Origin: a virus
Direction: 5' to 3' (one strand)
DNA: 64,000 nt
Virus record (IMG/VR): IMGVR_UViG_3300045988_122518
The first letter of the stretch is position 1. Each line of letters opens with the position of its first letter. The translations under genes were made by a program, and so were the position numbers. This document shows positions 3,271 through 61,779 of this stretch, piece by piece. The notes beneath the pieces were generated by a model, which was not told the DNA's origin, made no database searches, and worked only from the letters and a program-made list of their open reading frames with translations.

Positions 3271-3286
3271 AAAAATATTGTATAAT
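3258..3286 (+). promoter_or_regulatory. sigma70-like promoter with extended -10 (TTGACT, 16 nt, TGTTATAAT)
   Basis: Hexamers and TG extension; overlaps the preceding terminator tail. Confidence 0.35.
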
Positions 3287-3313
3287 ATTTATATAAAGTA
3301 ATGGAAAGGAGTA

Positions 3314-12579: not shown

Positions 12580-12843
12580 ATGTTAAATACATCTAATTTA
12601 AATTCAAGTATTAATGCTATACTTGAAAATAATATGTTTCTTAAAGACGCGGATTTAGCTTAGGATTTAAATTCTAATTTAGAACTTTTTACCCATGACT
12701 TAAATGTAGAATTAAATACATTAAATTCTATGGTTTGTGATAATATGCATAAGATATCATCTCGGTCAAGGGAATTTGCTGATTTTTTAAAAGATATTCG
12801 TAGTATATGCGATAATTATATCTCTCGATTTGATTATTATTAA
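12580..12843 (+). CDS. hypothetical protein (one in-frame TAG at 12661)
   Basis: RBS AGGAAG then ATG 12580; frame 1 is open to TAA 12841-12843. Confidence 0.3.
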
Positions 12844-12858
12844 ATAATATGATATTAT
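12829..12858 (+). promoter_or_regulatory. promoter with extended -10 upstream of DNA polymerase (TTGATT, about 18 nt, TGATATTAT)
   Basis: Repeat of the 10545 motif. Confidence 0.35.
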
Positions 12859-12868
12859 ATAAATATAA

Positions 12869-15800
12869 ATGAAAGATGAAAGGAATGTGCGAATGAGATC
12901 ATATTTCGGGATTCACAATCATACAATGTATTCAAATTTACGTCTATTAGATTGTATTAATAGACCACAAGCTCTTATTGACAAAGCGATAGAATTAGGC
13001 CTATCAGGAATAACTATTACAGACCATGAATGCCTTTCTGCCCATATGGAAGTAAATCAATATGCAAAAAAAATAAGAGAAGAAAATCCTGATTTTACTA
13101 TTGCTCTTGGTAATGAAATTTATCTCACTGATACAAGAGATAATGGACAAAAATATTATCACTTTATTCTTATTGCTAAAGATGCCATTGGACATAAAGC
13201 GTTAAGAGAATTAAGTTCTATTGCTTGGATTCATAGTTATGTTGATAGACGTATGGAACGAGTTCCTACTTTAAAAAGTGAACTTGAAATGGTAATGGAA
13301 CAATATAAAGGGCATGTTATAGCAACAACTGCTTGTATTGGTGGAGAACTTGGGAGTTGTATTTTACCAATGTTCCAAGCTGAATTAAACAAAGATATTG
13401 AAACTCAAACTAAATATTATAATCAAATAATTGATTATATCAATTTTTGTATTAAAGTATTTGGAAAAGATGATTTTTATCTTGAATGTGCGCCATCTAC
13501 TGATGCTGAGCAAATAATTGTAAATCATAAAATTTATCAAATCGCTAAGGCATTTGATTTAAAAATGGTAGTTGGAACAGATGCACATTATTTAACTAAA
13601 GAAGATAGACCCATTCATAAAGCATATCTTACTTCTAAACCAGGAGAAAGAGAAGTTGACGATTTTTATAAATTTACTTACTTAATGACAAGTGATGAAA
13701 TTTTTGAATTAATGGAACCTTATGCTAATGATTGGGATAAAGATAATAAAACAGGAAAAGAATTGATAAATTGGATTCTTGATAACACTCAAGAGATCCA
13801 AAATAAAATTTCTTTTTATTCATTAGAAAGAAAACAAATTATTCCAAAAGTTGAAGTAAAGGATTATAAGAAAGGATTCATTCCTTCAAACTGGTTCGAT
13901 AAATATCCAATTATCTGTTCTTTAATTAATAGCGACAATATTCAAGAACGATATTGGGTAAATGAATGTATTAAAGCTTTACAAGAAAAGCAACTTTATG
14001 ATAATAAAAATTATTTAGAGCGACTTGAAATTGAAGCTGATATTATAAAAGACATTGGTGAAAAATTAGATGATTGTCTTTTTGCTTATTTTAATACTTT
14101 CCAACATTATATTAATTTATTTTGGGAATGTGGAAGTATTGTAGGTCCTGGACGTGGTTCAGCGACTGGCTTTTTATCTAATTATCTTTTAGGCATTACT
14201 CAATTAGACCCAATTCGTTGGGGACTTCCTTATTGGAGATTTTTAAATAAGGAGCGCGCGGAGTTGCCTGATATTGATATTGACCTTGCCCCAAGTAAGC
14301 GTCCCGCAATTTTCAAAGCAATTAGAAAAGAACGCGGAGAATTGGGATTGGTTCAAGTTGCTACATTTGGAACTGAAGGCACTAAACAAAGTATTTTAAC
14401 TGCTTGCCGTGGATATAGAAGTGAAGAATTTCCAGAAGGAATTGATGTTGATAATGCTCAATATATGTCTTCATTAATTCCTCAAGAGCGTGGATTTTTA
14501 TGGCCTATCCATGATGTTATTTATGGCAATGAGGAAAAAGATCGTAAACCCGTTCAAGCATTTATTCGAGAAGTAAATCAATATCCTGGTCTTTTGGATA
14601 TTATTGTATATATTGAAGGAATGGTTAATAAACGTTCTTCTCATGCTTCTGGCGTTATTTTATATGGCGACGATCCATTTGATACCGCATCATTTATGAG
14701 AACTCCTAGTGGAGATATGATTACTTGTTGGGATCTCCATAAGGCGGAAGCTGCTGGAGACACAAAATATGACTTCCTTGTAACTGAAGCTTCTGACAAA
14801 ATTATTACTTGTTATCAATTACTTTTAAAAGATAAACAAATTCCAGAATTATCTTTACGAGAATTTTATAATAAATATATTCATCCAGAAGTAATAGATA
14901 CAACTGATCAAGCAATTTGGGACCACCTCGCCGCCGGTGATGTATTAGATGTATTCCAATTTTCTACGGGAGTTGGTTTGGCAATTGCGAAACGCCTTAA
15001 ACCCCAAGACCCTATGGAAATGACGGCGGCCAATGCTATGATGCGTCTTATGTCTGAAAAAGGTAAAGAATCACAGCAAGATAGATATTACCGCATTCAA
15101 CATTCAGGTATTAAAGTATTTGATGATGAAATGAAAGCTCAGCGTCTTCCGCAAGAATTAATTGATAAGATGCATAAGCATTGTGATAAATATTATGGAT
15201 GTTGTCCTATCCAAGAGCAAATGATGGAAATCCTTATGGATGTAGCTCATTTTACTCTTGGTGAAGCTAATACTGCGCGTAAGATTGTTGCTAAAAAGCA
15301 AATGGCTAAAATTCCACAACTGAGAGAGCAAGTATTTAGTAAATTTGATAATGAAAAATCTGCTGAATACTTTTGGGAAATCGCAGTTGCTCCTCAATTA
15401 GGGTATGCATTTAGTCTTAATCATTCTCTTCCCTATTCATTTGTAGCAATTCAAATGATTTACTTAGTAATTCATTTTAATCCTATTTATTGGGATACTG
15501 CTTGCTTAATTGTTAATAGTGGTTCCCTTGAAGATAATAGTGAAGAAGAGATTGTCGATATTTATGCTCCTGAAGGCGATGATTTAGCTAATGGAGCAAC
15601 ATTTGAAGATCTTCCTGACAAAAGTGGCAAAATCCGCAAAACCGCGGCTACTGATTATGGAAAAATTGCCAAGGCTATTAGTGACATTCAAAAAGCAGGA
15701 ATTGAAGTAGGTCTTCCTGATATTAATAAATCTAAATTTGGATTTGCCCCTGATATTGAAAATAATAAAATCCTTTTTGGACTAAAAGGTATGCTAAATG

Positions 15801-21862: not shown

Positions 21863-22110
21863 TGAATAAGTATCTTGTAAGTGCTACGGAAGTTTATCGC
21901 GTAGATAATGAGGAAAGTGCGGCCGCGCTTATTGATGAGGCTAAGGCTGAAACTAAATATATTTTAGCTAAGTATAGTTCAGTAAAGAAAGAAAAAAAGG
22001 CTAAGGGTGAAATTGTCGATGAATGGTATCAAGTCACTCTTGTTAAGAAATTCAATGATGAAAAAGATCCTATTAGTAATATTGATGTAAATTATGAGGT
22101 AAACTTTTAA
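21862..22110 (+). CDS. hypothetical protein
   Basis: Intact 82-aa ORF whose start overlaps the upstream stop. Confidence 0.35.
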   Translation: MNKYLVSATEVYRVDNEESAAALIDEAKAETKYILAKYSSVKKEKKAKGEIVDEWYQVTLVKKFNDEKDPISNIDVNYEVNF

Positions 22111-31814: not shown

Positions 31815-34800
31815 TCACTTTATAATAGGCTCTTCTTCAAAATTCGCTCTATTAGATATCATTGCTTCATAAATAGTGTGTAAAGTATTTTTAATACTTT
31901 CACCATAACTAGCAACATAATAATATCTAAAACGACCTGTGTATCCATTAGCCACTGTAGGCATACCAGTTTGACGAGGAGTAAAAATATTGCCAGAGCT
32001 ATCTGCTGTAATTTGTTTAATTGGATGTTTATTAGTACCAATCTATACTTGAATAGCGCCAGTATAACCTTTAAACTAATTACCAGACATATTTAAAATT
32101 GTCTGACCAGAAAATGCATTTATATCAAAATTAAGAATACCGTCTTTGCATCCCTCTATAATTAAATTATAAGGAGAATAAGAACCCATCTTACTTTGAT
32201 AAAATGCTTGAGCTCCAAAAGTCAAACCTTCAGTAGAAGAAGAATAAGGAATTATGTTATTACGACTTAAAGGACATTGATAAAATGCTTTAGTACCAAT
32301 TTTCTTTAAACAATCACTGAATTGGAAATATTCTAATCCACTATCTAAAATAAAGGCATAATCATCTATTACAGAAATTTTATTACTATCTTTTGGAGCA
32401 AAGAATATAGCAGTAATATTAGGATTTACTTGAATACCAACTGCTGCTGAGGGGTTAACTTGGCTATATTTAATTCTTGTAATTGGCTAACCATTATAAG
32501 TTGTAGGTAAAGTAATTTTGCCTTTTAAATTCTTAGCTAAGTCAGTCATTGCAAATGATAATTCTCCATCAGAGTTTATAATATCATAATATTTATGAGT
32601 AGAATCATTAGTTAAAATATTATTATAAACACTAATGGGTTCTCCAATAGCGTAAAATTCGCGATCAGCATAGGCTAGTTGTTTAGTTAAATCAATTTTA
32701 ACTCCATCTTTATCCGCCCATCCCGTCTATCTCCAAGTCCATTCTAATGAGTCTTCGCCTTCTGGTAAATCAGATACTTCTGTATTATTAAAATAGTAAA
32801 ATTCTTCTGGAACAGTAATCCTTTCACCATAATTAAATACTTTCTTTACGGTTGAATCATCAATAACACGATCGCCATTAACAAAAGTAATTGTATAAGA
32901 TTTACGCTCAAATCTCGCTTTAAAAATATAATCTATTTTTTTATTAGATTCTTGTTCTGTGGGAAAAGATAAAGAATTCCAGTTATTTTTTAAAATAGTA
33001 TCCTTTTCATCTACATTTTTTCCAACCGTAATTATTAATTCTCCAGTATCATCTTCCCAACCTTTAAAATCATAAGTAGGCATTTTTTCTTGTAAGCTAC
33101 CAAAAGAGATATAAGTTTCACCCTTAGAGTCTGTTGGATCATCAAAGAATTTTTTACTAGTCGATAATGACAATTTCTAAGTTTTTAAAATTTCTTGAGT
33201 TAGCACTCCGTCCGCATTTTTCTGTTCAAGAACAAATTTAGCAGAATATTCTTTTTTAACATTTTTTACAAAAATAGTCAAATTAGGATAAATACTTTGC
33301 AGTTCTTCTTGAATCACATGTTCTTCTATCTCTTGAGCATTTTCAATATAAATAACACCAGTTATATTAGGATGGGTCTAGTTAATACCTTTGAAATAAA
33401 CCGGAGCTTTATTATATAAATTACGCAATAAAGTATAATCAATAATTTTATTATGAATATCATTATATCCATTTATATTATTATCATAATAATAAATTAA
33501 ATTATTCTTTATTTCACTTGGGGTAATTTTACTTATATCTTCTACATCAATTTTTTCTAATTGGAAGTGTCCATTATCTTTATAATACTCAATATTGCTA
33601 TTCAATTCTGTTTTATCATCATTTAACAGTCTATAAGGACTCCATTGGACATTAGTTAAATTAATTTCGCATCCCGTTAAATTACTCTTTTCACACCCAA
33701 GATAATAACGTCTTAATAATTCATAAGAATAATAATCTAAATTGCCACCACGAATATCAAAAGTTTTTATACTTGTTGTAATTGCAGTATCTCCAACATC
33801 TGTTAGATTCTTAATATATAATCCCTTGTTTTCTTCCGCAACCTCAAGACGATTAGTAATAGGATTAACTGTAGGATGTACATATGTAGTAACTAATTTA
33901 GTTAAAAGATTTGCTTCTATTAAACTTAAGTAATTTGTATAATCAGTTAAATATAAAGTATTTAAAGCGACCCCTTCCGCAAACTGAACTTTAGTAACAT
34001 TAGAACCGGTATTTCTAAAGTTTTCTAATTTTTCACTTTTAGTTAAATCTAAAGCTACTGGATTTAAAAATTTAATATTGCAAAGATTCATTTCTTTTAA
34101 TAGAGGCATACCTTCACTAGGATAACTCCAATTATTTACATCATTATTTTTATATTCTTTCCCTTGCTCAGAAAGACCATCATATCCTAATAGTAAATCT
34201 ACTAATTTATTAGCTTTACCTCTAATGAATAATTCTTGGAAATATAATTTACTTAAATCTCCAAGAGATTTCATTTGCTCTAGTCCGTAAATATAATATA
34301 ATTGTTCACGATAATTACCACTTGACATAATACCTTTTTTTAAGTCGGGGGCAGTAAATCTAACCGGAGTTAAACCATCATATTTCTAAGATGGGAAATT
34401 TGCTCCGTCTGTTCCAACAGTGACATAAGAACGACGTGCTGGTTCCATCTCAATCCAATATTCACCATCAAACATATGATTTTTAGTGCCAAATTCAACC
34501 CCATCTTTCCAATAAGGAGAATTTGGTATTAAATTAGTTAATCCCTAATTATTAGTTCCTTCAATCCATTCATCAGATGTGGTATTTGGATTATTAGCAG
34601 AAATACGACTTATAATATTATTACTACCACTATCTCCAGAATATTCATCTACTGTTAACCAAGAGTCAATATAATTAAGACGATTAGTTAAAAATTGAGA
34701 ACGATAAAGATTGCGGTCGCCCTATAAAGCATAAAAATACTAATCAGTTTCTACTTCATACTAACCACCATTAGTAATACGACCAAAAATAGTGTCCTTT

Positions 34801-37800
34801 GCTGCTGAATTAGTCGGAATAATATATTTATATTCTTCATCTAAATTTAAAGCAATAATAGGACGCTCTCCCTATACAGCATAACTACCCGGGAATAAAG
34901 AAGGATCTGTTTTATACCATTTATCAACAACATCACTCTTTTTAGAAGAAGTTCCAGACTCTTTCTTAAAAATTTGTTTTACTTGACTCTAATCATAAGA
35001 TCCATTTGGCTTACCCATTAATTGTTTGTATTTATCAACAATTTTGCTCTTAAAGAAAGTATAGAAATTATTCCATAATACACTATCATTAGTAGAATAA
35101 CTACCATCTTCAGTAGCATCAACATAATATTCAAATGATGGAATACCAGTATTATTAATACCTAATTGAGTATCAATATCATAAAAAATAGGATACCAAA
35201 TATAATGTTGAATTCCAGTGACTTTTTCAATATTTCCTTTTTGAGGACCCCAAGAAGCAAACATTGCATTTTTACCACGAGAGTCATAACATTCAAAAAT
35301 CTCAGTCATTAAAAAATAAGTAGCTAAATATTCAATATTAAAATAATTGCTTAACTCATTTTTAAATTTAGCTTGACGATATTCCTTACTATCTTTATGG
35401 TAAGTAATTGAGTTATAAGTTATCGGTGTAGGTAATAACCATCTATCATCAATTTGGCTCTCATCTTCAATAAAAGAATAATAAGTTGTATAAGGATTAT
35501 ATTTTTCAGAATCTAAGATATAAATTTTATTATCCTAATTCTATAAAATATAGTATTTATTTATCTAATAAACTTTATTATCATCATCAGTTAATTTAAT
35601 TATACTATAAACTTTACTGTCTTTATTATAAATATAATATTTTTCTTCTAAATTAAAATCTTCAGTGGCAATTTTATAAGTTTCGCTACCATTTTCATCA
35701 ACTTTATCAAATAGATAATATTTATTTGGCTCATACTTGGCTTCAGCTAAATCTATTTTCTCATATTGACCCATTGAAGGAATTTCATATAAAACTCCAT
35801 CAAAATCAATGCTACAATCTAAACAAGTACTCCAAACCCAACTTACGGCGTCTTCCCAATTTGACATTAATGCAAGAAGTAATTCACGAGAAGTATTTCT
35901 ATTCTTCATATCAAAGATGATAGGATTTTGTCCTGGATTAGTAATAGTCCATTGTTTATGTTTAATGCCAGTAGAATTATCAATAATGGTTTCTGATTTT
36001 AATCTATCGGGAACTGTATTATTTATTGCGTCAGTAAATTCAATTATCTTGTTCGCGTCGGTAGCCTCCGCTGAAATGCACTTAAATAATTGGTCTGTGA
36101 TTAAATCATCATTAGAGTTATATCTAACTTCAAAAGAGTCAGCAACTATTGGAGCTCCGCCAGAAGTTAAGTAACCTGTTGAATTTTTATCATCCATTAA
36201 TGGAGGTCTAAAAGATAATTTATATCTATTCCAAGGATCACGGAAAGAACAATATGTTCTTGAATTATTCTAAAATTCCCAACATTCAGCAATATCTCTT
36301 ACTTTTGGAGTTCCATTAATTTGATTCTATAAAATCTTTTTATCAGGTTTAAATCCAAAACATTCATCAGACCCTTTATCTAATAACATATTATATTTTC
36401 CAATATAAATAATATCGTTTTCACTATATTCATTGTCATTAGTTGAAGGCCAATGAAATGCTAAAACAGGATATCCTTTCATAGAAGTTCTATAATCATC
36501 AGCATTTCCATATAAATCATATTTGTCAAAAGACTCTTGATAATCTTCTATTGGATGCTTAGAATAAGTTTCATTAACTAAATTAGCAAATCCTCTATTA
36601 TAATCTCCAGAAGATTCCATAAAATCAATTTTTAAAGTAAACTTAGTAGTACCAACAGTATTATTGTCCATATAGAAAAATTTAAGATAACTCTTACTTT
36701 TTGTATTTAAATTATTATTTGTTTCTTCTTCTTTATAAATAGATTCAAAAGGTCCTCTATTCATAAACATAGCTTCTTTACATTTAGCCTTATAATTACG
36801 TCTTGGATAATTACGAGAAGAAGTTCCCTAAACCTAAAATGTTGCTTTATCAAAAAGAGTTATAAAGCTGGGGCAATGATGTAAATAATAATTCTATACC
36901 GCAGTATATTTTATTTCCTTAGTTTCTTCATCTATTACTGGTTTCCAGCCCTCTTTTTCAACTATTTTATCAAGTTCGCCCTTAGCATAAGCAATATCTA
37001 ATGGGACATTTACGAATTCCATAGTTCCTTTTTGAGCACCATTCTCTTTAGAGTATGGAAGTCTATTATCAGTGCTTTCACTATTATTTTTAGTAGTTTT
37101 TAAAATAATATATGGCATTAATGGTTTATCACTATGGTCAGTATTGTAATCAAGCATTTTACGATAAGAAAATACGTAATCATTTAAAATAGTATTATAA
37201 TCATATAAATCTTTTTGATCCCATTGATTAATATCTTTTTTATCAAAAGCATAATTCTAAACTACGTCAGGAATAGTTAAGCTAGCATCATAAACTCTAA
37301 TACTATAAATATCAATATCACAAGTATTAGACATAAATTTAATCACATCAGAATCAATTGTCCAAGCAGAATTACTAGATTTATCAGAACGACGAGCTAC
37401 ACTAGTTAAAACACCGTTTAAAAAAATTTCTAATAATTTAGAATCTCCACCAGTATGACCAGGCTTAGAACTTGTGTAAACAAATGTTAAATATAACATT
37501 TCATCTTCTACAAAATCAACTGAAACAGTCTCTTCATCACCATTAGCTGTAAATACAGCATCTTGAGGGCTAAAATAAATACCTAAAGGATTTTTTAAAG
37601 AACCGTAAGCACAAACAAGATTATTTAAATTAAAATCTTGATCTAATCCATTATAAGTTAATTCATCATAACTTGGTGCTTCTGGATGTTCTGGTAAATA
37701 TTTTTTTGTTAAGAATTCATCATAATTAACATAAATAGACTAATCTTTAAATGCATTCCAGGCGTCTCTATCAGTCCAAGATTTTCCAGAATCATCACTT

Positions 37801-39533
37801 GCTTTATAACGAGTATACTTTGTAATTACTTTAGAATAATTTTGTGGATTTCTAATTTTAAATTGAATCTCAATACTATGAGTAGGAGTAGAAGAACTAT
37901 TATCAAAAGATAATGATCCAATAGGAATAGAGACTTCAGCTCCATTACTGACTCTTAAACAAGTAGTATTATTATCATCAAAAACCCAACCATTATTATA
38001 CCAATTAAAATTTTTAAATTCCGCATATTTACCGTTAATCTCTAATGTTTCACGGCTTAATTTGCTCTCAGAATTAGAACGTCCAGTAGCAACAAAATTA
38101 ACTTTTAAGTCATTGGCTCTAGCTAACTCCATATTTCTCAATGGATCTATTTTAATTGTAAAAGTAAAATTACGAGAATAATCATATGGTTCAGTTCCTA
38201 CCTTAATTGTATAATAAGAACTATCATTAACAGAAAGATTAGTAATTTCCCAATATTGCCATATAGTCTAATCAGCAATTTCACGAGTACTTAATAAGAC
38301 ACCGTTTTTATACAAACTAACTTTCGCAATTATTACATTGGGATCATATACTCTAAAAGGAATTCTAATAGTTTCATAAGTGTAATATTCAGTTTTAAAA
38401 TCACCAGTCCAAATTAAAGGAGTTTCACTACTTTTATCTAAAATAACAATTTCTTTCTCAATAAAATCAGTACCATTTCCTTTTTCACCGCTGTTAACTA
38501 AATAAAGTTTAGCTTTAATAGTATGTTCTCCATGAAGAAAATAATTTGCTAAAGTTATTGTAGAATCATTATTATTATTTAAAATAATTGTATTCTTTGT
38601 TATAGTAACACTATCTTCATTTCTGGTATTAGTATTATCATATTCTTTATCTAAAACTAAATAATTATCAAAATAAACTTCAATAGCACTATTTACTTTA
38701 TTAGACATCAACCAAGTAACATTAATCTAACCATTATCAAAAGGTAAATTATTATTAAATTTACTTTCCTACCACTAAAGAGTTAATTCATGAGTAGTTA
38801 TAAATTGAGTTTTCTTAGTTGTAGAAAAATGATTATTAGTAGGGTCACTATTTTTACTAACAATAAACTCAATTTCATGTGTGGAAGATTTTCTTAAATG
38901 AGCAGAAATATCAATAGTAATTGGTTTATTATGTTGATAAGTTTTTGCTTCACTATAAATATCTTCCCAAGAACCATCACTCTTTTTCTATCTAATAGTT
39001 AAAGTACCTTCAACAGAATCAAGAACTGGATCTCCGTTTATTGTTCTACATTTTACAAGCGCGGTTACACTTACTGATTCACCATTAAGCACATCAGTAG
39101 GACCATCTAAAGTTAAAGAAACAGTACCATTTACTTTAATTTCTTGGTCTTGGTTTCCACCACCTGCCAATAATTTTTCACAACTTGCAACTTTTTCTTT
39201 ATCATCATTTAATTTAAATTTTTTAATACGATAAAATGCTCCATCGCTATTTAAAATTAAATCATTTATATGAGGATTAGAACTTGATAAATTAGATAAA
39301 TGAATTGAATATCCAATTGGATTCTCATCTGCATCATAATCAATTTCAACTTCTTTTTCAGTTCCGTAAATTACCTAAACTCCACTTGAACCTATCGGTA
39401 TTTTATTCTCAGTCGCTGTATCTAAATAAACTCGTCCTGTGTCTGTTGCTACATAAAAATATCCATCAGTTTGAGGATATGCCTTTATTTTTTCTTCTGG
39501 GCCCTAAACAGGACGAAAACGTATCTTAGACAT
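31815..39533 (-). CDS. giant structural ORF of about 2572 aa (tail/baseplate megaprotein) containing dozens of in-frame TAG codons
   Basis: RBS GAAAGGAG then ATG 39533. Ten tracked - strand ORFs (38988, 38268, 37740, 37257, 36894, 36327, 35565, 34989, 33378, 32727) all share frame 0. The junctions at 36198-36326, 35310-35564, 34329-34988, 33174-33377 and 31815-32726 were traced codon by codon and contain only TAG. The other junctions were read less rigorously, so an undetected TAA/TGA would split the ORF into two or three genes. Confidence 0.45.
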
Positions 39534-39551
39534 AATTTACTCCTTTCTATC

Positions 39552-39592
39552 CTAAAAAAAATATGGGGAAAGAATATTTCATCTTTCCCCAT
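39552..39592 (-). terminator. rho-independent terminator after the 39652 gene (TGGGGAAAGA / TCTTTCCCCA plus U-run on the - strand)
   Basis: 10-bp stem; on the - strand it is followed by a T8 tract. Confidence 0.5.
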
Positions 39593-39651
39593 AAAAACAT
39601 TCTTCTATATAAAATAGAAAAAATTATATTTATTATTAAATAGTATTGCCC

Positions 39652-41313
39652 TTAGAATGTTCCCCACTCTAACTCAAAATTAACTTTAGCATCATCAGTC
39701 ACAGTCGCCGCAGAAACATTAACCTTTAGGCTATTACTAGTGAAAACAAGCGGTTTGCCTTCAAGATCAGCACCAGCAACTTTAAGGTTAGGAATTAAAG
39801 TATCAGTACCATTTACCGTATAATCTGCATTAGCAATTTCTTGATGAGTATTTTTTACAGTAAAAGTTTTTTTAGTAGATTTAATTACATGCCCTTGAGC
39901 ATCAATTTCAGTTGGCTCATTAATAGTAATAGTTTGTTCATCAGCATAGGATTGAGAAACTGGAGTATTTACAGTTAAAGTATTACTATGTTTAATAGTA
40001 ACAACTTTAGAATTAGTAGGTTGACCTTTTGAATCTGTTAAAACTTTTGTTTCTAAAACAATACCACTTTCACCATTAAGAGCATAATCTAAAAGTTTTT
40101 TGGTAGAACCAAGTTTAATGATAAAACCAGCAGTACTATTATCATTGGCTCCTTCAACTTCAGTAACAGGGTCATCAGCAGAAGGAACATAGGTCCAATT
40201 AATAGTACCAGTAATAGCCCCATTAACTTCTTCACCAGAAGCGATAATTAAATCACCAGGACGTAAATAATGACCATTCCAAAGTGTATCTTCGGCTCCA
40301 GTATAAATAAAGGTATTACCTTCAGTAATTTCAGTAATATCAGAATTATCATAGGCAATAGCTCCATCTTTAACTTGGAATCCGCCACGGAATACCATAG
40401 CATTAATAGTTCTAAGTTGATTATCAATATCTTGTTTGCTATAAACAGGAAGAGTTAAAACACCATCTTTAAATTTGTAGCCACCAGTCTTGCCTTCTAA
40501 AGCAATTTCTGGATCAATATCAGCAGATAAAGTTGTACCATTACCAGCTCCTTCAACGCCAGGACCACTAATAGAAGCAGTAAAACCAGTACCAGTACCG
40601 TGATTAACTACATCAATACTATCAACAGCTTTATTTACACTTAATGTATAGTTTCCTGTAGAAGTTTCAGCAATATTAACATTACTACCAGCAATAATAT
40701 TAAAATTACCTGCATCAGTATCAGTATTTTTCAAATTAACATTTAAAGTTTTTTCATTTAAAGAAGAGCTTAATTGATAATTGATTCCTTTTAAACTCAG
40801 TTTAACAGTGTCTACACCTTTATCATCAACAGCAGGAACTGCTTCAATTTGGATATAATCGCTACCTATAATATCATAAGTCTCAGTAATAATATTACCA
40901 CTACTATCAGCAATAGTATTAGTTATAGAAACTCCATTAGGTTTTTCAGGATTACTATTTACTGATACATTACTATTTTTTTTACTAGTATCTAAAACAG
41001 TATCAGTATTAGTTTGAATCCAACCTTTACCATTATTAATACATAAGATATTTTTATCTTTTACATAATAAAATTCGCCAGCAGTATTTTGGTTAAAACT
41101 TTGAGGTAAACCTGCGGTAGTATCAACTACGTTAATACCTTGATTTACAGGAACACAATTATTTTCATCTACACCATAATAAAGACGACTTGGTTTTTTA
41201 TAATCATCAGCGGATTTATTATCATTAATTACTAAATAAAACGCACCAGGTTTATATCTACCTGCCACCTTTTCAAATTCGGCTTGAGAGCCTTTTAAAA
41301 ATTTAACGTTCAA
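39652..41313 (-). CDS. tail-fibre-like protein, 553 aa, TTG start, no in-frame TAG
   Basis: Uninterrupted tracked ORF; RBS AAAGGAG then TTG; N-terminal motif MNVKFLKGSQAEFEK ... YLV is shared with the 41909 and 29124 genes; Thr/Asn/Gly-rich beta repeats. Confidence 0.65.
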   Translation of the reverse strand: MNVKFLKGSQAEFEKVAGRYKPGAFYLVINDNKSADDYKKPSRLYYGVDENNCVPVNQGINVVDTTAGLPQSFNQNTAGEFYYVKDKNILCINNGKGWIQTNTDTVLDTSKKNSNVSVNSNPEKPNGVSITNTIADSSGNIITETYDIIGSDYIQIEAVPAVDDKGVDTVKLSLKGINYQLSSSLNEKTLNVNLKNTDTDAGNFNIIAGSNVNIAETSTGNYTLSVNKAVDSIDVVNHGTGTGFTASISGPGVEGAGNGTTLSADIDPEIALEGKTGGYKFKDGVLTLPVYSKQDIDNQLRTINAMVFRGGFQVKDGAIAYDNSDITEITEGNTFIYTGAEDTLWNGHYLRPGDLIIASGEEVNGAITGTINWTYVPSADDPVTEVEGANDNSTAGFIIKLGSTKKLLDYALNGESGIVLETKVLTDSKGQPTNSKVVTIKHSNTLTVNTPVSQSYADEQTITINEPTEIDAQGHVIKSTKKTFTVKNTHQEIANADYTVNGTDTLIPNLKVAGADLEGKPLVFTSNSLKVNVSAATVTDDAKVNFELEWGTF

Positions 41314-41327
41314 TCTTTTTCACTCCT

Positions 41328-41909
41328 TTAAATATCAGACCAAGAAACAGTTTGTTCAACTGCTTCAACACGAGTTACCAAATTATCAGGGCTCTTATCT
41401 ACTAAATATTTATTAGCTATATTAATTGTTTCAATATCTCCCTAAGTTAATGTTCCTATTGGCATATCAATCCATGTACCAGCGTCGGTAAGAATATGTT
41501 TTCCTTTAGTTTCATGTAGAGAAACAGGAACTAAACCCGGGACTGTGCCCTTAAAAACAGGAGCTAATTTAGCTAAATTTTCTTCTGTAGATAATTTTTC
41601 AACAATAGAATTAATTAAAGTCTCATTATTTTCTAAACCCTAATTAACCCATTTTTTCTATTCTCCATTATAAATTAAAACTTGATTTGTCTTAACTTCA
41701 TTAAGAACAATATCACTTAAATCGCTTAACTTACCTGCGGAACTAATTCCACCGCAAATTAGACGACTACCTAAATAAAGTTCTCCAGAAGAATCATTTT
41801 CCCCATAAATAAAATATAAAGTATCATTGTCTCTTTTCGTCCCTAAATTTTCAAAAGCGGTTTTAGAACCTCTGACAAATTTTACATATTTATTTAATGT
41901 ATTAGGCAA
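41328..41909 (-). CDS. tail-fibre N-terminal-domain paralogue (194 aa, TTG start, two in-frame TAG)
   Basis: RBS AAAGGAG then TTG 41909; MPNTLNKYVKFVRGSKTAFENLG ... DTLYF motif; the length is divisible by 3 to TAA 41328. Confidence 0.45.
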
Positions 41910-41939
41910 GATAATCGACTCCTTTCTATTATTTATAAA

Positions 41940-41990
41940 ATCTTTTTAATCAATACTAAAAGGGTTTGGCCTATTAAGACCAAACCCTTT
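41940..41990 (-). terminator. terminator hairpin (AAAGGGTTTGG / CCAAACCCTTT)
   Basis: 11-bp stem downstream (- strand) of the fibre gene ending at 41998. Confidence 0.45.
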
Positions 41991-41997
41991 ATTTAAA

Positions 41998-53440: not shown

Positions 53441-56400
53441 TTATTTTCTATTGGCATATTGAGAAGCTACATTAACTAATGTATTAAATGCTTCTTGAAT
53501 TTCGTATCTATCAGTAGCGTTCGGGAAACTAGCTTCAATTCTAACATTCTATTCTAATGTTCCATCTTGAGAACTAACAGTAAATCCAGAAGAAGAAAGG
53601 GTAGAGATTTGTTGACTATTGAAATCTAATTGTTTAGCGATCTATCTAACTAATTGGATAGAAGCTAACATATTTTCCGTATCATCAGCATTAAGAACTA
53701 ATTCTTTCTAATGTAAGAACGCTAATTTTCCGCTATCATTCCAAGTGCCAGTATAACCACCACTTCTAAATCCGACTAAATCTCTCCATTCCTAATCAGT
53801 AAGCTAAGCAAAACTATATTTACCATTAGGAAGTTTACCAGAGATTTTTCCTTCACTGAGTAATTTATAATATGCATCAACTCGAGCCGTAGTGTCTTCA
53901 TTGATACTACCGCCATTAGCAATTTTTTCTTCGCGGTTTCTTTTATATTGATTATATTGCGCGGAACCATAAGCCACAGTGCCCATCATGGCCGCCCAGT
54001 CAGTATCTCCACCACTATCGCTACCAAATCCACTTTGAGAGCGTAATGTCGCTTGAATAGCGTTCAAAAGCTCTTCATAAGCTCTAATAGTATCAAGTAA
54101 TTGCTGACGATGTTGTGCCCAAGCTTCAGTAGCACTACGGACAGAACTTAACTCACCTTCAAGAGCAGGAATAACTCTATTAGATACTTCTTGATAAAGT
54201 TTATTACTTTCATCAGTAACATCTTTAACTTTCTATTGAGTATCTTTTAAATCATCACCAACAATTTTACTAATTTCATCCATACTGTCTTGCCATTCTT
54301 TAAATGTATCATTGATAATATTAGTGTTTTCAGTAATGGTATCTTTCCAACTATTACTATTATCTTTGATAATATCAAAAGAATTTACCCAAGCGTCTTG
54401 AACAACTCTACTATCCTCTTCTTGTGCTTTTGCATAAAGATTTCCAGCAGTAGTAATTAAATCAGTATATTGTTGAATTACTAAAGCACGTTCTTGTTGA
54501 TATGTGGTCTCACGGTAAACAGCATCTTCCGCGGCTTTCTAATCAAGTTCCGCGAGCTTCTCAGCCAACTCTTTCTCATATTGAAGTTTTTGTTGACCAT
54601 ATTTATTTGTCGCATCAAGACGAATATTATATAAATCATTTTCCGCGTCCGCCAAAGCCTATTGCGCGTCATTTACTTTCTCTTGGTCTGCGGTATACAC
54701 ATAACCAAAATTACCCTCATTATCACGTTGTAATCTAACTGTGGATTTTGCGTTTTGAGCTTCCTCTAATGCAATTTGCGCTTCAAGCACTTTATATTTA
54801 GCCTAAGCAATTTCTAATTCTAATTGACTTAATTTATCTTTATCTCTTAACTACTCAATTTCTTTAGTAAATTGCTGGTATCTATTTTTAGCTGCTTGAT
54901 TATTTGTCTTATCAATAGCCTAATTAACATTATTAAGTAGTTTATTCATTTCATAAATCTAATTAGTTTTTGTTAAGTATTCATCTTGATAAGAAGACAT
55001 TCTATCCAAAGCATCATTTAAAGCATCCCAACCGGAAATATTAAAGTTATTACCATTAATACTTACTTTAGTAGTGCTTAATTGCTTATTCATTTCATCC
55101 GCAGCTTGTTCCATCTTTGTAGTAAGAATTTCTTTTAATGCTTCACCATATTCTTCCGCTTTAGAAAGCATATCTTCTTCCGCTTCATCGAACGCGGCTA
55201 ATATAGCATCATAATTCTTTTGAAGCACTTCGCGTTCAGCCTCATCAGTTGAACTGGCTAAAGCTGCGGCCGCTGCATCGCGCTCACGCTTCAAGCTTTC
55301 GTACCATTGTTTAGAAGTATCAAAATTATTTTTCTTAGTCTAAGCAGTTCCATTTAAAACTGATAAAACTTTATCATAATCTTTATCTTTACCTAACAAA
55401 GTAATAATAGAACGATAATGATCTAATACACTAGTTAAATGCTCCATATGATTTGTATATTTAGACAATTCATCATTTGCTAAATCTATAGTATTACCAT
55501 AATATTCAAGCATTTCTTTATCTAAATCCTACAAAGCATTTAAATTATCTAATGTATTATCATATACATCTTGTAAGCCTTCGATATAATTTTCTTGAGA
55601 AATTTCTCCATTAGAATAAGCATTGTTTAACTAACCATAGAAATTTTCATAAGTTCCTAATTGGCTAATTACTGGATCAAATTGACCTTGTAAATATCCA
55701 AGAGCTTCAGCAGCTTTATAAATATTATCACTTAATTTATCGAAATAATATTCTAATTTCTTAGTATCATTTTCATCTAATTGAATTTTTACTTCAACTT
55801 CATAAATTAATTTTTCATAATGTAATTCTTGAACTGTATTCTTTAAATCAATTAAAGCTTTTTCTTGCTCTTTTAATTTATCTAAAGTTTCTTCATACTA
55901 CTCTAAAGCTTCTCTCTATTTATCAGTAGTAGCTTTATTATATAAAGCAGTATAATTATCGATTTCTAATGTTTCCTTATTAAAAATTGCCTATCCGCCG
56001 AACTGTTTTTGAACTTCCTACCGATCTACAGCTACATTCGCTAAAATTAAATTATACAACTAAGACTATAAATCAATCAATTTTTTATTAGCTTCAATTT
56101 CTTGATTTATATTATCAATTTTAGCTTTTCCATAAAGTTTATCTTTGCTATCCGCTAATTTATCTAAAAGTTTTTGATAATATTGAATTTCACGAGTTAT
56201 TTCATGATAGCGCTCAGCGACTTTTTGCAATTCTTTAGCAGTATTAGATGCATTTTTTCCAAGATTTTTAAAAGCATTATTAGTCTTTAAAACTGATGCT
56301 CCAACAGAAGCAATCATCCCGCGGATGTCATTTGCCTATGCCATAGTAGAAGCATAAAGGGAATTATAAGTAGCCGCAATTTTAGCCCAAGTTTCTTTGG

Positions 56401-59400
56401 AAGTATTTTGTCCATCTGCTAATGCTTTATCTAACGTCTTCTATGCATCTTCTAAGACTTTTGCTTCAGCACTAACACCTGTTGACCCTTTATAATCAAC
56501 CTAGAATTTTCCTTCTAGTTTTCCCTTTCCATTTCCGCTAACTGCTTTTTTCATATTATTTATAGCAGTATTAGCAAAATCTACAGAATTCTATGCTGCT
56601 GATTTAAAAGCTTTCTACCAATTTTCCGCTACAACTTTAGCATTATCTTTTGAAGAATTGGCAACAATTTCTTGATTATCAGCCTATGTATCAGCTGTAT
56701 CTTTACTATTTTTTGATTCTAATTCAGCTAAATTACCAGAGATACTACTCCTAATAGCCGCAGATTCCTAAGCACTTAAATTTTCAGCTGTGGCAAGAAT
56801 TTCTGCCAAATGAGCTATATTTTTATAATTTACAGCTTTCGCTTCTAATAAAGTAGCCTAATTATTTAACTATTCGACAGTAGCTTCAGCGTCAGCAGCA
56901 ATTTCTGCTTTAGCTGCATCAAAGCAATCTTTAACAACACTTTCTTTTAATTTAGCTGATCCATCTTTAGCTATTGTCATTCCTTCAATAATACCAGGAA
57001 AAACATTATTTAATTCTCGAATGTCATCAGCAGCAACACTATAATTAGGACCAATTTTAGAAGCCTAAGTATTCATATCTTTAATAGCATTTGTAATACT
57101 ATTAAATTCTTGTTCTGCTTGGCCATGAACTTCAACATTTATACTATATTGCTAATCTGCTAATTCATCCATAGAATCTTTAAATTTACTAAGATCAGCC
57201 TCTACAGTAACATTTACTCCTTCTTTTTTATTTATGATCTATAAATTTTGTCGAAGTTCTTTAAGAAGTTTATCTGAATCTTTATTTAAATCATTTAATT
57301 TGATTTCAGCCATTTTATCTTGGACTTGTTCTAAAGCTTCATAATAAGTTTGACTACCAGCATTCCAAGTATGAGATAATTCTAAAGCCGCAGATTCTAA
57401 TTCAGGATATTGTTTTTTTATTATTTCTAATTGCTATATCAAGTTAGAATAATCTTCATTAGAAGAAATATTTTCTTGAGTAACATCTCCACTCTATAAT
57501 CCACTAATTAAATTAGAAGCGTTTTTTTCGCCCGTTTTGGCAGCGTCAACAATTCTCTAATTATAATTATCAGGATTATAATTATTTAAACTATTTTCGA
57601 ACCCTTCTAGCCAAGCTTCTCCATCATTTAATCCTAAAGATTCCATTTGTTCTTTAGTTAATCCTAAAGCTTCTGCAAATCCATCTGATCCAAGTTGTTT
57701 TAATTCTTCAACCTAATCAGGAGATAATTCAGATAAAATAGAAGTTAAATCTAAACCACTTTCGGCATTTGCTAGACTATCAAGAATTGCCTATGAAAAA
57801 TTAGCACCAAATGTTTTATCAAAAAATTCTGTTTTCTTAAGAAGGTTTTCAATAGATTTATCAAATTCTTCTAAATTATAAGAATCATTATTCTCTAAAG
57901 AATTAAAAATTTCATCTGTTGCTCTTTTCCTAGCGATCTATTCTCGCATATAGGAATCATTTTCGTCTTCAAAAAGGACAGTTCCGTTTATATTCTTTAA
58001 AGTTCCTTTTCCAGTCCCACCACTATAAATATATTGACCTAACTCTTCTTCTGTTAATCCTAAAACTTCTCTTGCATAAGCTTTTGCTAATTCTTTATCA
58101 TTATCTATATTTAAATCAGCATTATTATTATGAGCTGGCAAAGTTAAATTAGTAAAATCTTTACCACTATTTTTAAGAATTTGACGCTAATATCCTGCTT
58201 CAGCAGCATAAATATAATCCTATAAAACAGTATTATCAGTAATCTTTTCAACTCGTCCAGAATTATTTTGAATATTTTTACTTTTTAATATTTCATTACT
58301 ATAATAATCAGTAGCTTTAGTAGCTTCAGTAATACTATCTGCTAAATTAAAGAAAGCATCACTACTTTCCATAATTTTATCAATGCTCTCAGAATAAAAC
58401 GTTGTATTTTCTTCTAATTTTTGTCTTAAAATTTCATCCTAACTCTTATGAGTTTTTATACTTTCTTTCTATGCTTCAATAGCAAATTGAGTAATTAATT
58501 CAATTTCACCATTTGTAATTGTGCCAGAATTTCCTTCTCGCTTTACTTTACCAATATTTCTACTTAAATCAGTATTAGAAACTTCTTTTTTAGCAGATTC
58601 AACATCAATTTTAGCACTCTACTAAAGAACTTTTATATTATTTGCAGTATCATTAATCTTCTTTTGAGCTTCTTCAATAGCTCCTGTATCAAAAACAATT
58701 AAGCCATCTTTAATTTCATATTTATCCCATAATCTATAAGTTTCAATTAGTTCTTTAGCTTTCTCATTAGCTGATTCTAAAGAATCTGTATATTCCTATG
58801 TTTTTTTATCTAACCCATTAAGCGCTTCAACGGCTGTAGTATAATCATTAGCTTTATTTTTAAATTCTTCAATTGATGAAGTTAATTCATTGTATTTTTC
58901 AGTTAATTTTTCTACTGTTTCACTAGCAGATTTTAAATTATTATCTGCTTTATTATATTCATCTATAGCAGATTTAATAATAAACACTAAAGCACCAATA
59001 GCGGCTCCAACCAAAGCTATTGACCCTAAAGATTTAGTAAATACCTTAATTGCTAATTTAAAAGCTGCTACTCCTTTTAAAGTAACTAAATTTAACGCTT
59101 CTTGTTCTAAGGCCTATCCATTTAATCCAACAGCAGTCATTAAAGAACTAGATAACATTCCCATATTAGCAATTGAAGTTTTATTTAAAGAATTCATTAA
59201 TAAGGGTAAGGCAATAGATAAAGCAGTTACGGTTGAAAGTAATTTATCTCCAATACCAATTTCATCATTATTCCATGTATCTACAATTCCTTTTATAGAA
59301 GTTATTGCCATAGCAATACTGCTTAATCCCTAAGCAAAAGAAGCTACTCCTGCTTCTGCTGAAGGTAATACTCCACTAAAAGAATTTATAGTATTAATAT

Positions 59401-61747
59401 ATTCTTGATTAGCATCAGTGGCTCTATTAGTAGCCTATACATTATTAAGAATTTCAATAACCATAGAAGAATATGAATCTTGTAATGAATTAATAGTATT
59501 TTCAATCTGTTCTTCAGTCATCTAAGTGCCTTCTAAAGTACTTCGTAACTATGAAAATGCTGAATTGGCTTCATTTTCTGTAATAGTAATTAAACTATTT
59601 AACTAATTTCTAAATTCTTCAGTTGTATTATAAGTCCCATTAAGAATATTATCTAAACTATTAAAAGACATCCCTAACTAAGAAGTTTTATCACAAACCT
59701 ATTGGAGTTTCTCTTTTAATTCATCTAAATTTTCGATATCTCTTGTAGCACTTTGGAAATCATCTAAAACACTAGATAAAACAAAATTCTGTCTAGTAGA
59801 ATTTACCTAAGATCTATAATCCTAAACATTCCCTTGTTTCATTCTAACTTGCGTTTCAAGCTATCTTTCTAATTGACGAGTTATTTTTTGCTATTGTTCT
59901 AAATCTTGAGCACTCTTAATTGCTCGTTCTCCAAGTTTTTCATTAATATCTATAATAAATTTAGCCTAAGCCTATTCTTCTTCAGTCAACTGACTCCCCT
60001 AAGCAATTAATTCTCTTTGTTTCTAAATTAAAACATCTTGTAAATTAGCCTACTAAGTATAAATATCACTACGAGTAGAATAATCAGGTCCCTAATCAAC
60101 ATTATCTGCCATAATAGATCTCAATTTATTATTAGCTTCTTGACGCATTTTTACAATTTCATTTATTCCATTTTTAGAAGAAATTTTAATATTATACATC
60201 ATCCGTTGAATAGATTTTGTAATATCATTCCCGAATACTTTAAATCCAATAGTTCCAATAATAGATAGAACTCCAGGCAGTCCTCCTAATGCTTTAATTA
60301 GCTAGCTAATAACATTTAATAATTTTGCAAAAATATTAGTTAATTGAATAAAAGCCTTATCATCCAATAGCTAATCATAAATAGTTTCCAAAGAAGCAGT
60401 AACTCTATTTTTAGCAGCTTCCCAAGATTCTGCGTAAACGTCAGCTTGCTCCTGAAGAGATCCATCAGCATCCTAAGCTTTAGTAAGATTTTCTTTATAA
60501 TAATCAAAATGATCCATCAAAGCAATTAATTGAGTATATTGACGAACACCCGCAACCTATTGTGCTAAAGCTACTTGCTAATCTTTATCAATACTCTGCC
60601 ATTTATTACCCATTTCTTCGATAATATTATCCATATCTTTTAATTCACCGTTAGAATCTTTAATATTAATTCCAACTTTTTCAAGAGCCTATGAGTATTG
60701 ATTTAATGTAGTACCATCTTCTAAAGTTTCACCAAGTTTTAAACCTTGAATACGAGCAAAGATCGTTTTTAAAGCAGTACCTACAACATCTTCACTTTGA
60801 CGAGTAGTAGCAGTAATAGTGGCTAAAGCTGCTGCTGCATTATCAAAACTTAAACCAATTGTACTAGCAACCGCTGCAAATTTTTCAAGGCCACCAGCAA
60901 TCTCATCAGAACTAGAAGCGGTATCCGCACCTAAACGCACCATAGCATCAGCATAATGCTCTAATGACTAGCTTCCATCATAAAAATTATTCCAGACAGC
61001 AGTCATTTGATCTGAAACAATTTCAGCACTTTCACGAGCCACATTTGCCATTTTTATAGTGATGTCAGTACGTTCTTTTACCTATTCATCATTTAAACCC
61101 TACTGATAATAAATTAAGGCTGCGTCAGTATATTTAGTAGTTGTAGTGCTTAACTCTTTAGCAGCTTTATTTGCCTAAATTGCAAATTTTGCCATCTAAT
61201 CTGCATTTTGTCCAGTAACGATACGAATATTATTTAAAGATTCATTTAAATCCTAAGCATAATAATAGGCAGACTATATTGCTCCCATAAAGCCATGTAA
61301 AATACTTGAAGATATTTGCCAACGAGCAGTATTAGCTAAAGTAGTTCCAAATTCTTTTAATAAGGCATTACTTCTTTTTAAGGGCAACTCTGCTGTAGAA
61401 ATAGATTTTGCTAAATTAGCGAAAGCCTATTCGCCTTCTCTACCTAAAATTTGTAGCTAATCTCCATACTCGCTAATAGTTCTTCCACTTTTTTTTAATG
61501 ATTGATTAAATTTTCCTAAATCAATAGTCCCCGCCTCTGTTCGGCAAGTGACTAACATCCCTTGTAATTCACTAACATAAGGCAAGGCTTTTTGAATTTC
61601 TTGCGATAAACTTAAATTACCATAGCTGTTAACATTTTTTGTTAAATTATTAAGCTATTCTTGTAAATCTTTCAACTATTGTTGAGCCTATTTAGCATCA
61701 GCAGTAAATTGTAAATTAACCTAATAACTATTTAATTGTTTAGCCAT
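53441..61747 (-). CDS. tail tape measure protein, 2768 aa, recoded with dozens of in-frame TAG
   Basis: RBS AAAGGAG then ATG 61747. Nine tracked ORFs between 53804 and 60943 share frame 2. The C-terminal 120 codons were traced to TAA 53441-53443 and contain the TMP-type motif FRSGGYTGTWNDSGKLAFLH.KELVLNADDTENM. Long coiled-coil-rich sequence throughout. Confidence 0.7.
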
Positions 61748-61779
61748 AGGAATCTCCTTTCTCTCCAATTTTTACTTTG

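Follow-up and report, generated by a model that had tools for sequence, protein, structure and literature searches.

We analysed an unusually large gene in a 64,000-nucleotide stretch of viral DNA (IMG/VR record IMGVR_UViG_3300045988_122518), which we call the window. The gene lies on the minus strand at 31815-39533, inside a structural and tail block and directly downstream of a fibre-like gene, in keeping with an earlier note on this DNA that had described it as a late open reading frame (ORF) downstream of fibre genes. It is one conserved gene read through TAG, not ten fragments, and its product is probably a host-recognition tail fibre built around a region with a predicted CotH-type kinase fold. 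The gene is delimited by the following features.

31815-39533, minus strand: complete coding sequence, 2,572 codons and a TGA, in which 30 in-frame TAG are read as Gln (frame statistics, full-length homologues, uninterrupted standard-code relatives, alignment of TAG with Gln).
39540-39547, minus strand: Shine-Dalgarno sequence GAAAGGAG, 6 nt upstream of the giant-gene ATG, read from the sequence.
39553-39593, minus strand: terminator-like hairpin (12-bp stem; hairpin 39593-39562) followed by a T-run, between the upstream fibre-like gene and the giant gene, identified by match to the consensus.

The frame opens with an ATG at 39533-39531, preceded by an in-frame TAA, and runs through 2,572 sense codons to a terminal TGA at 31817-31815. 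It is interrupted internally by 30 TAG, no TAA, and no TGA, whereas over the same DNA the two alternative frames of this strand have 126 and 432 TAA or TGA. At ~28% G+C, this is far beyond what chance would produce, and it cannot be put down to the richness in A+T. Motifs resembling Shine-Dalgarno sequences are found ahead of 14 of the 18 minus-strand gene starts. Under the standard code, the frame of the giant gene contains exactly ten minus-strand ORFs of at least 60 amino acids (aa), with low ends at 32727, 33378, 34989, 35565, 36327, 36894, 37257, 37740, 38268, and 38988. These are the ten consecutive ORFs in a common frame from which the earlier note had assembled a single reading frame, going from a ribosome-binding site and ATG at 39533 to the TGA at 31815 with TAG alone at the five junctions it had traced. 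Translation of the full frame bears this out. It also settles the six junctions that had been left untraced (36771-36893, 37158-37256, 37500-37739, 38142-38267, 38712-38987, and 39171-39530): TAG is the sole stop in each.

A search of ~5.8 billion proteins returned 69 homologues of the giant protein, most of them 2,300-2,680 aa long. Two of them (P0001 and P0002) match at 93% and 87% identity with 100% coverage, have the same start and end residues, and are encoded in contigs of ~193-196 kb (192.6-196 kb for the close relatives). The locus of the closest homologue is also broken up under translation table 11, which indicates that it is recoded too. Two other homologues (P0030 and P0025, with 36% and 41% identity to the giant protein) are single genes of 2,516 and 2,598 aa that are exact table 11 translations and occur in syntenic loci. 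Megablast of the giant gene against 50,697 deposited phage genomes gave no match, so no close relative has been deposited among them, and tblastn gave only distant matches.

The two standard-code homologues were used to identify the meaning of TAG. Where the giant gene has TAG, they carry Gln in 13 of the 56 aligned cells (23%, against a background of 3.0%; 7.7-fold, binomial p = 9e-9), and enrichment stays within two-fold for every other residue. The corresponding value at the CAA and CAG positions of the gene is 31%. Three of the TAG codons (902, 1069, and 1604) fall in columns where all distant homologues carry Gln. The pattern extends to the entire structural block: once TAG is read as sense, the minus-strand block at ~24-64 kb becomes a series of tightly packed genes that end in TAA or TGA. 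TAG makes up 38% of the Gln codons in the minus-strand tail and lysis block (206/541) versus 12% in the plus-strand replication block (28/235). In summary, the alignments show that TAG is Gln in the giant gene. The contrary reading—some ten to thirty ordinary genes or pseudogene fragments with genuine TAG stops, the long frame being a coincidence or a decayed gene—could invoke the ten ORFs obtained with table 11 and the window's lack of a suppressor tRNA, but it is effectively refuted by the distribution of TAA and TGA among the frames, by collinear full-length homologues and a gene uninterrupted in two standard-code relatives, by the match of TAG with Gln (three invariant columns included), by the same pattern throughout the structural block, and by most of the fragments having neither a start nor a ribosome-binding site of their own.

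This use of TAG resembles that of code 15 gut phages (Lak, crAss-like, and 'gemstone' clades; 10.1101/2021.08.26.457843), in which in-frame TAGs cluster in the genes for structure and lysis, thin out in those for replication, and align with Gln. The contigs of the close relatives (192.6-196 kb) are also within the genome sizes quoted for large TAG-recoded clades, such as 'Sapphire' at 201 +/- 22 kb (Borges et al., 10.1101/2021.08.26.457843). The window differs from these phages in that a scan of its 64 kb revealed no suppressor tRNA or other code-change machinery. The published model for recoded gut phages is that TAG is decoded as Gln late, after a phage suppressor tRNA has been expressed (Borges et al., 10.1101/2021.08.26.457843), and experimental confirmation of TAG-to-Gln recoding in gut phages is reported in PMC9523058. 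Since the gene has 30 TAG codons, its full-length product needs TAG to be decoded as Gln. The giant protein would be made in full only while this decoding lasts, which under the published model would be the late phase of infection, once the phage suppressor tRNA is expressed.

The best conserved part of the protein is its central region, of ~760 aa, where we distinguish the following features.

34614-36896, minus strand: predicted core (aa ~880-1640) with the atypical protein-kinase fold of the CotH type; aa ~1262-1352 are a variable insert.
36816-36830, minus strand: invariant Q-G-T-S-S, aa 902-906, in the N-lobe, with a TAG codon for Q902 (conserved at 99-100% over 161 core segments, Q in the standard-code homologues).
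35268-35285, minus strand: invariant D1417-S-R-G-K1421-N1422, candidate catalytic loop (conservation in the core segments).
35160-35183, minus strand: invariant Y1451-D1452-x-D1454-T-Q-L-G1458, candidate metal-binding (DFG-like) motif (conservation in the core segments).

A profile search of 1.84 billion representatives identified 3,765 relatives at E <= 1e-3, and nearly all of the top 150 are giant. In 161 core segments, which include relatives down to ~20% identity, the columns Q-G-T-S-S (902-906), K968, N979, D1052/K1053, D1417-x3-K1421-N1422, and Y1451-D-x-D-T-x-x-G1458 are 98-100% invariant. In each of the pairwise comparisons, the 100 aa with the highest conservation are those of bin 1401-1500, which reach 72-73% identity even with relatives that are at 36-41% overall. 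This systematic conservation argues for a function that depends on those residues.

The core was modelled with AlphaFold from a 38-sequence alignment, taking as target the segment of P0001, a proxy with 93% identity. The model has a predicted local distance difference test score of 72.9 and a predicted template-modelling score of 0.79, and the insert at aa ~1262-1352 is poorly modelled. A Foldseek search of this model against 350,542 chains gave significant matches with 5jda and 5jd9 only, which are CotH kinases of B. cereus (PF08757). The core has 13% sequence identity with CotH. Against predicted viral structures (BFVD), the matches have E-values of 7.5e-18 to 1.4e-8 and a probability of 1.00. 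They include gp353 of Bacillus phage G, a 'Spore coat protein H kinase fold' (Myoviridae sp. ctrCp2), a 'CotH kinase protein' (Siphoviridae sp. ctHAs12), and 'Internalin-like' or 'Spore coat protein-like' proteins of the crAss-like phages cr52_1 and cr124_1. The sequence of phage G gp353 also matches, with 30% identity over aa 1376-1546. Some of these labelled phage proteins resemble the giant protein in carrying LRR (leucine-rich repeat) or internalin-like parts; they differ from it in being shorter (~630-1,320 aa in BFVD) and in belonging to unrelated phage lineages. At the sequence level, the Pfam CotH model, at its positions 153-281, matches four of seven compact cores taken singly, with a best E of 3.3e-8. 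The relative P0068 aligns with aa 1378-1502 of the giant protein at 38% identity, and exactly that stretch carries its Pfam CotH match (25.9-27.5 bits, for a cut-off of 23.8). Membership in the CotH family is thus transitive only when judged from sequence. Taken together, the model and these matches predict for aa ~880-1640 a CotH-type protein-kinase-like fold expanded by inserts. The earlier note had seen 'no recognisable enzymatic motif' in the protein; this does not hold for its best conserved 760 aa, which are predicted to adopt the fold of an enzyme and have invariant residues of catalytic type.

The stretch matched by CotH model positions 153-281 includes D1417, K1421, N1422, D1452, and D1454. 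In B. subtilis CotH, Asp228 and Asp251 are the catalytic and metal-binding aspartates, and their substitution inactivates the protein (PMC7821199). Because the D-x3-K-N and D-x-D motifs are invariant and the loss of Asp228 or Asp251 inactivates CotH, we regard the core as a putative phosphotransferase whose activity is on balance the likelier state. The core differs from CotH kinases in several respects: the identity is low, the surrounding phage protein has many domains and 2,572 aa, the core includes ~400 aa of inserts, and neither the spore-coat context nor a Ser/Lys/Arg-rich substrate was identified for the phage protein.

The kinase-fold core would act either in the cytoplasm during tail assembly, as CotH does in the spore coat, or on a substrate at the surface. 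CotH phosphorylates structural proteins to assemble an extracellular proteinaceous layer. Since the phage protein is made in the ATP-rich cytoplasm, CotH is its closest functional analogue. One can go further and suppose an active tail-borne kinase whose phosphotransfer is obligatory for infection or tail assembly, with a tail or fibre component that would be phosphorylated in the cytoplasm for assembly, or a host surface glycan or protein that would be modified at adsorption. We consider this stronger claim doubtful. If it were true, the thousands of giant LamG-CotH fibres, including those diversified by retroelements, would be enzyme-armed receptor-binding proteins, with a chemistry new for phage tails.

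The alternative that survives best is that the core is a pseudokinase: a structural scaffold or ligand-binding module without phosphotransfer. CotH proteins of fungi act as invasin ligands, which provides an analogy. The large lineage-specific inserts (a core of 760 aa versus compact cores of 460 aa), the 13% identity with CotH, and a giant protein that falls below Pfam CotH detection are also in its favour, as is the little access to ATP that an extracellular virion protein would have. Yet D-x-x-x-K-N, Y-D-x-D-T, the Q-G-T-S-S loop, and a Lys are 98-100% invariant over relatives that go down to ~20% identity, and the catalytic region is the most conserved bin everywhere, a pattern unusual for pseudokinases. 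Moreover, synthesis takes place in the cytoplasm, where ATP is available. We thus find a loss of phosphotransfer conceivable, though hardly the probable outcome, and retain a putatively active kinase-fold core as the preferred reading of this region.

The remainder of the protein was divided into the following regions.

39159-39533, minus strand: N-terminal module, aa 1-125; its profile matches the N-terminus of 183 of the 217 collected relatives; presumed attachment module.
38094-39146, minus strand: beta-rich region, aa ~130-480, homologous to the Hankyphage target protein (described below) and PHROG 24896.
37239-38021, minus strand: Laminin_G_3 or concanavalin-A-like lectin-type region, aa ~505-765, assigned by transitive homology via the Hankyphage protein.
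33504-34286, minus strand: LRR-like region, aa ~1750-2010, with LxxLxLxxN, read from the sequence; up to aa ~1871 it is common to the Hankyphage protein.
32544-33236, minus strand: beta-rich repeats with a Y-x-F-x-G-W ... F-Y-A motif, aa ~2100-2330, from sequence and consensus.
32034-32531, minus strand: BspA-type leucine-rich repeat domain, aa ~2335-2500 (Pfam LRR_5 below threshold; family profile against the Protein Data Bank, PDB).
31818-32936, minus strand: exchangeable distal module, aa ~2200-2572, mosaic between lineages in windowed identity.

The match with phrog_24896 spans aa 175-562. Other N-termini occur in the most distant relatives, such as the baseplate domain BppU_N in P0066. 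At the C-terminal end, the sole Pfam match of the giant protein is LRR_5 (PF13306), at aa 2384-2445, with 19.9 bits for a cut-off of 27.7. The family profile nevertheless matches the BspA-like LRR proteins 4gt6, 4fs7, and 4fdw of the PDB at E-values of 9e-32 to 8.5e-21 (9e-32 for 4gt6), and PF13306 is among the precomputed annotations of most homologues. These profile matches confirm, at the level of the family, a C-terminus of BspA-type LRRs. The leucine-rich repeats proposed earlier from the letters alone are thus supported in this domain, but not in the mid-protein LxxLxLxxN segment (aa ~1750-2010), whose LRR fold no profile match confirmed. We had also considered that aa ~2100-2330 might be the Listeria/Bacteroides repeat (Flg_new, TIGR02543). 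This resemblance, suggested by the Y-x-F-x-G-W motif, lacks support from hidden Markov models (no Pfam or NCBIfam match in aa 1635-2572 or in the C-termini of P0025 and P0030), and it was rejected.

When deposited phages were searched with tblastn, the giant protein matched the Hankyphage group and gp353 of Bacillus phage G. The match in Hankyphage p00 (BK010646) is a 2,245-aa 'hypothetical protein' whose gene comes after those for the tape measure, baseplate hub, and minor tail proteins and has as its 3' end the variable repeat of the phage's diversity-generating retroelement (DGR). The two proteins align in three collinear blocks, at aa 137-611 (E 2e-13; aa 340-790 of the Hankyphage protein), 646-1061 (E 4e-9), and 1381-1871 (E 6e-19; aa 1187-1572) of the giant protein. 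They have similar sizes, occupy the same slot of the tail module (tape measure, hub, minor tail, giant gene, small ORF), and have in common a body of Laminin_G_3 and CotH-like regions that is collinear over aa 137-1871. Pfam Laminin_G_3 matches the Hankyphage protein at 729-872, above cut-off (E 8.3e-9), and this segment maps to aa ~550-780 of the giant protein, which places a lectin-like region upstream of the kinase fold.

There are also clear differences. Identity with the Hankyphage protein is only ~23%, the N-termini are unlike, and the C-termini are unrelated: that of the Hankyphage protein is a variable region of C-type-lectin type, which the DGR rewrites (variable repeat, template repeat, and reverse transcriptase), whereas the window gene ends in beta-rich repeats and BspA-type LRRs. 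Hankyphage uses the standard code, in contrast to the TAG-recoded gene of the window. Its host is Bacteroides, whereas the phage of the window probably infects another phylum, given a Shine-Dalgarno-using host and an SPbeta-like polymerase. No pair of DGR template and variable repeats was found in the 64-kb window; the screen for a reverse transcriptase covered a part of the window's ORFs, and the relatives were seen over 10 kb on each side. Since there is no such repeat pair in the window and the C-terminus is made of LRRs, we did not class the giant gene itself as a DGR target.

Proteins of this kind have been encountered before among DGR targets. The 'category f1' targets of Wu et al. 2018 (PMC5758913) are ~2,000 aa long, have weak CotH and Laminin_G_3 motifs, and occur in phage contexts; the giant protein resembles them in its length, its tail context, its CotH-like fold, and its (transitive) Laminin_G_3. 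The Hankyphage target protein was described as having no similarity to any characterised protein, and adherence to mucus was raised as a possible role (Benler et al. 2018, PMC6199706). Phage CotH-family kinase domains fused to hypervariable C-type lectins were called 'currently unstudied' (Benler et al. 2021).

The distal part of the giant protein has been exchanged between lineages. In P0008 and P0012, the body is at 46-80% identity with the giant protein, except for the first 100 aa (82%) and the bin 1401-1500 (88-89%), and the last ~400 aa are at 93-100%. P0013 and P0018 show the reverse, with a body at 44-88% (95% and 93% at 1401-1500) and a tip at 28-61%. Summarised over the distal module (aa ~2200-2572), P0012 is at 98-100% there and ~60% in the rest, and P0013 and P0018 are at 29-60% there and 70-80% in the body. 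In the wider family, the C-terminal domain varies among LRR_5, DUF6273, Lcl_C, Big_2, and the DGR variable region. Receptor-binding tail proteins have an established signature: they are encoded at the far end of the tail module and combine a conserved proximal body with a distal binding part that can be exchanged. The mosaic tip, the BspA-type LRRs, and the position in the tail module correspond to this signature. In addition, the C-terminus of the collinear Hankyphage homologue is DGR-diversified for ligand binding, and a distant member begins with BppU_N. For these reasons, we favour with fair confidence the view that the giant protein is a host-recognition, receptor-binding tail fibre with a CotH-type kinase-fold core. 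The N-terminal module, which is specific to the family, would dock it to the tail tip. It would be followed by the conserved order of the body—beta-rich region, ConA/LamG-like lectin region, CotH-type kinase-fold core, LRR-like stalk—and by the C-terminal BspA-type LRR module, which is swapped between lineages and would bind the target surface. The earlier suggestion of a 'baseplate or central fibre megaprotein' is compatible with this context as far as a tail or baseplate fibre is concerned, but placing the protein specifically in the baseplate or in a central fibre goes beyond what the context shows.

Binding might be directed to the animal environment instead. In this alternative, the protein would be a virion-associated adhesin for mucus or epithelial glycans that keeps the phage near its hosts, a role proposed for decorations of Ig-like and lectin type and also suggested for the Hankyphage target, and it would not be the receptor-binding protein for bacteria. 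BspA-type LRRs and lectin-like domains are typical modules of adhesins, mucus adherence was raised for the homologous Hankyphage protein (Benler et al. 2018), and the other fibre-like genes nearby could provide the true receptor-binding protein. On the other hand, the gene is inside the tail module and not with head-decoration genes, and distal exchange and the DGR diversification of the homologue are classic signatures of host range. Neither argument is decisive, and we regard the adhesin as rather unlikely. Much less likely still is an effector ejected into the cell with or ahead of the DNA to phosphorylate host proteins, like the internal virion proteins of other phages: its kinase fold with conserved catalytic-type residues, very large size, and gene near that of the tape measure would suit this role, but the LRR and lectin-type modules, the exchangeable distal end, and the DGR-diversified C-terminus of the homologue point to an exposed binding protein, and no membrane-spanning or ejection-related features were seen on reading the sequence.

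Several observations weigh against the reading of the giant protein as a recoded receptor-binding fibre with a kinase-fold core. Some concern the recoding. Scans of the 64-kb window, about a third of the genome, and of three related 27-kb loci revealed no tRNA gene, suppressor or other; the decoding agent was thus not seen, and its existence and late timing would follow by analogy with the published work on recoded gut phages. Recoding is also uneven across the late block, since none of the 15 Gln codons of the upstream fibre-like gene (39652-41313) is TAG. Others concern the fold. No direct Pfam match with Laminin_G_3 or CotH was found for the giant protein, and for CotH this extends to six core segments even at E <= 1. 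Profiles of the family core failed to detect CotH among PDB sequences (one, A2, had zero matches and another, A5, chance-level matches with T-cell receptors at E ~0.04). The CotH assignment depends on transitive matches of hidden Markov models and on the structure predicted for the P0001 segment, a proxy of 93% identity, and D1417 and D1452/D1454 would be candidate equivalents of Asp228 and Asp251. A kinase acting at the cell surface is disfavoured by the scarcity of ATP outside cells. Finally, the case for a location in the virion is indirect, from gene order and homology with Hankyphage, and so is that for the binding of a bacterial receptor, which is suggested by analogy.

The genes around the giant gene are consistent with a tailed phage of large genome. 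The plus-strand block at 1-23 kb is a replication module that encodes a PolIII-alpha-type polymerase (PHROG 405, 2.6e-218), NrdD, RecJ, DnaB, Dda, a primase, and Sak4. The nearest counterparts of the polymerase, at 39% identity, are those of SPbeta-like Bacillus phages. The minus-strand structural genes are ordered as tape measure, tail proteins, fibre-like gene, giant gene, 66-aa gene, fibre-like genes, and holin, and the neighbours of the giant gene are syntenic in the three related loci (L001-L003). The tape measure protein, the 'first giant ORF' (53441-61771, minus strand), has 2,768 aa and 84 in-frame TAGs, and it matches PHROG 4211 (E 6e-71). Tail length normally scales with that of the tape measure; this one would predict an unusually long tail, perhaps of several hundred nanometres. 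It is followed by proteins of 1,090, 963, and 768 aa with weak matches to tail proteins and by a 757-aa protein for which we found no family match. Low G+C, TAG recoding, and a pair of divergent arms had first led us to think of a crAss-like phage, a guess that we dropped in view of the 2,768-aa tape measure and the SPbeta-like PolIII-alpha polymerase. The best explanation of these data is a long-tailed phage with a genome of ~193-196 kb and an SPbeta-like replication module. The use of Shine-Dalgarno sequences (14/18) and the affinity of the polymerase suggest a Bacillota-type host.

The fibre-like gene directly upstream of the giant gene (39652-41313, minus strand) encodes 553 aa from a TTG start and is followed by the terminator-like hairpin. 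Given the 38% of TAG in the block, its zero TAG among 15 Gln codons would be a ~1-in-1,000 event if TAG were used at random, and the gene might be expressible without TAG suppression. Between it and the gene of the 757-aa protein there is an interval of ~680 bp (41314-41997, minus strand) where a 205-codon frame (41328-41945) stays open apart from 3 TAGs and has its first ATG at codon 160. The relatives carry a gene of 284-328 aa in that position, so the gene of the window may use a non-ATG start or be degraded.

The gene immediately downstream is very small.

31605-31805, minus strand: conserved 66-aa gene whose Shine-Dalgarno sequence overlaps the giant-gene TGA (AAGTGAGGATAAATTATG); it has syntenic homologues of 66-73 aa.

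A gene of 66-73 aa follows the giant gene in all three related loci (L001 17714-17914, L002 17563-17784, and L003 17813-18019), and we found no family match for the one in the window. It appears to be translationally coupled to the giant gene, because the stop codon of the latter lies within its Shine-Dalgarno sequence, and it is a candidate fibre assembly factor, possibly with the role of a chaperone. Comparison with the small ORF that follows the giant gene of Hankyphage showed the two to be unrelated. Further downstream there are three more fibre-like genes and the holin (PHROG 13712, 7e-38). Two of the downstream genes (29197-29817 and 29823-31343, minus strand), encoding 206 and 506 aa, have a paralogous N-terminal region, recognised from the DNA repeats D4 and D6 (78-79% identity) and the motif '...DH.AE.IYF.IDRYFD...'. 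The 506-aa protein has faint PKD or Ig-like matches.

Other elements of the window deserve mention. Between the lysis and structural genes of the late block, on the opposite strand (26890-27606, plus strand), there is a LytTR-type response regulator with Pfam matches to Response_reg (34.7 bits, above cut-off) and LytTR (20.8 bits, slightly short of the cut-off). Codon 17 is its single in-frame TAG, and L001 carries the same gene at 21911-22627. With an AgrA/ComE-like regulator of its own, a phage could tie its late programme to host signalling. A 49-nt element (TTGAnTTTT...TATAAT-ATTTATATAA) is repeated at 665-713, 3258-3306, and 12830-12878 on the plus strand, upstream of replication genes that include the polymerase, and looks like a shared early or middle promoter. 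The GC skew flips sign at ~23.2-24.0 kb, where the two modules converge tail to tail: the replication module (plus strand) ends at ~23,174 and the structural module (minus strand) at ~24,028.

These results have implications for annotation and for the understanding of a broad set of phage proteins. Gene calling with the standard code shatters the giant gene into ten or more fragments, and reading TAG as Gln restores a protein of 2,572 aa within a tidy tail module. The protein links the giant DGR target of Hankyphage, a ubiquitous phage, with the 'CotH-like' proteins scattered in phage metagenomes and with the BspA- and internalin-like phage proteins. They form one very large family (3,765 cluster representatives) with a conserved body of LamG and kinase fold and interchangeable binding tips, of which the gene of the window is a well-preserved, LRR-tipped member that is not a DGR target. 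Nothing here is categorically new: phages recoded at TAG, giant LamG-CotH proteins of phages, and BspA-like phage proteins were all on record before, either described or annotated. However, the most conserved part of a probable host-recognition protein is the candidate catalytic region of a kinase fold, which raises the question of what a kinase fold does on a phage tail. If the core is active, it would represent a new enzymatic activity for tail fibres and provide a handle on the host range of abundant gut phages.

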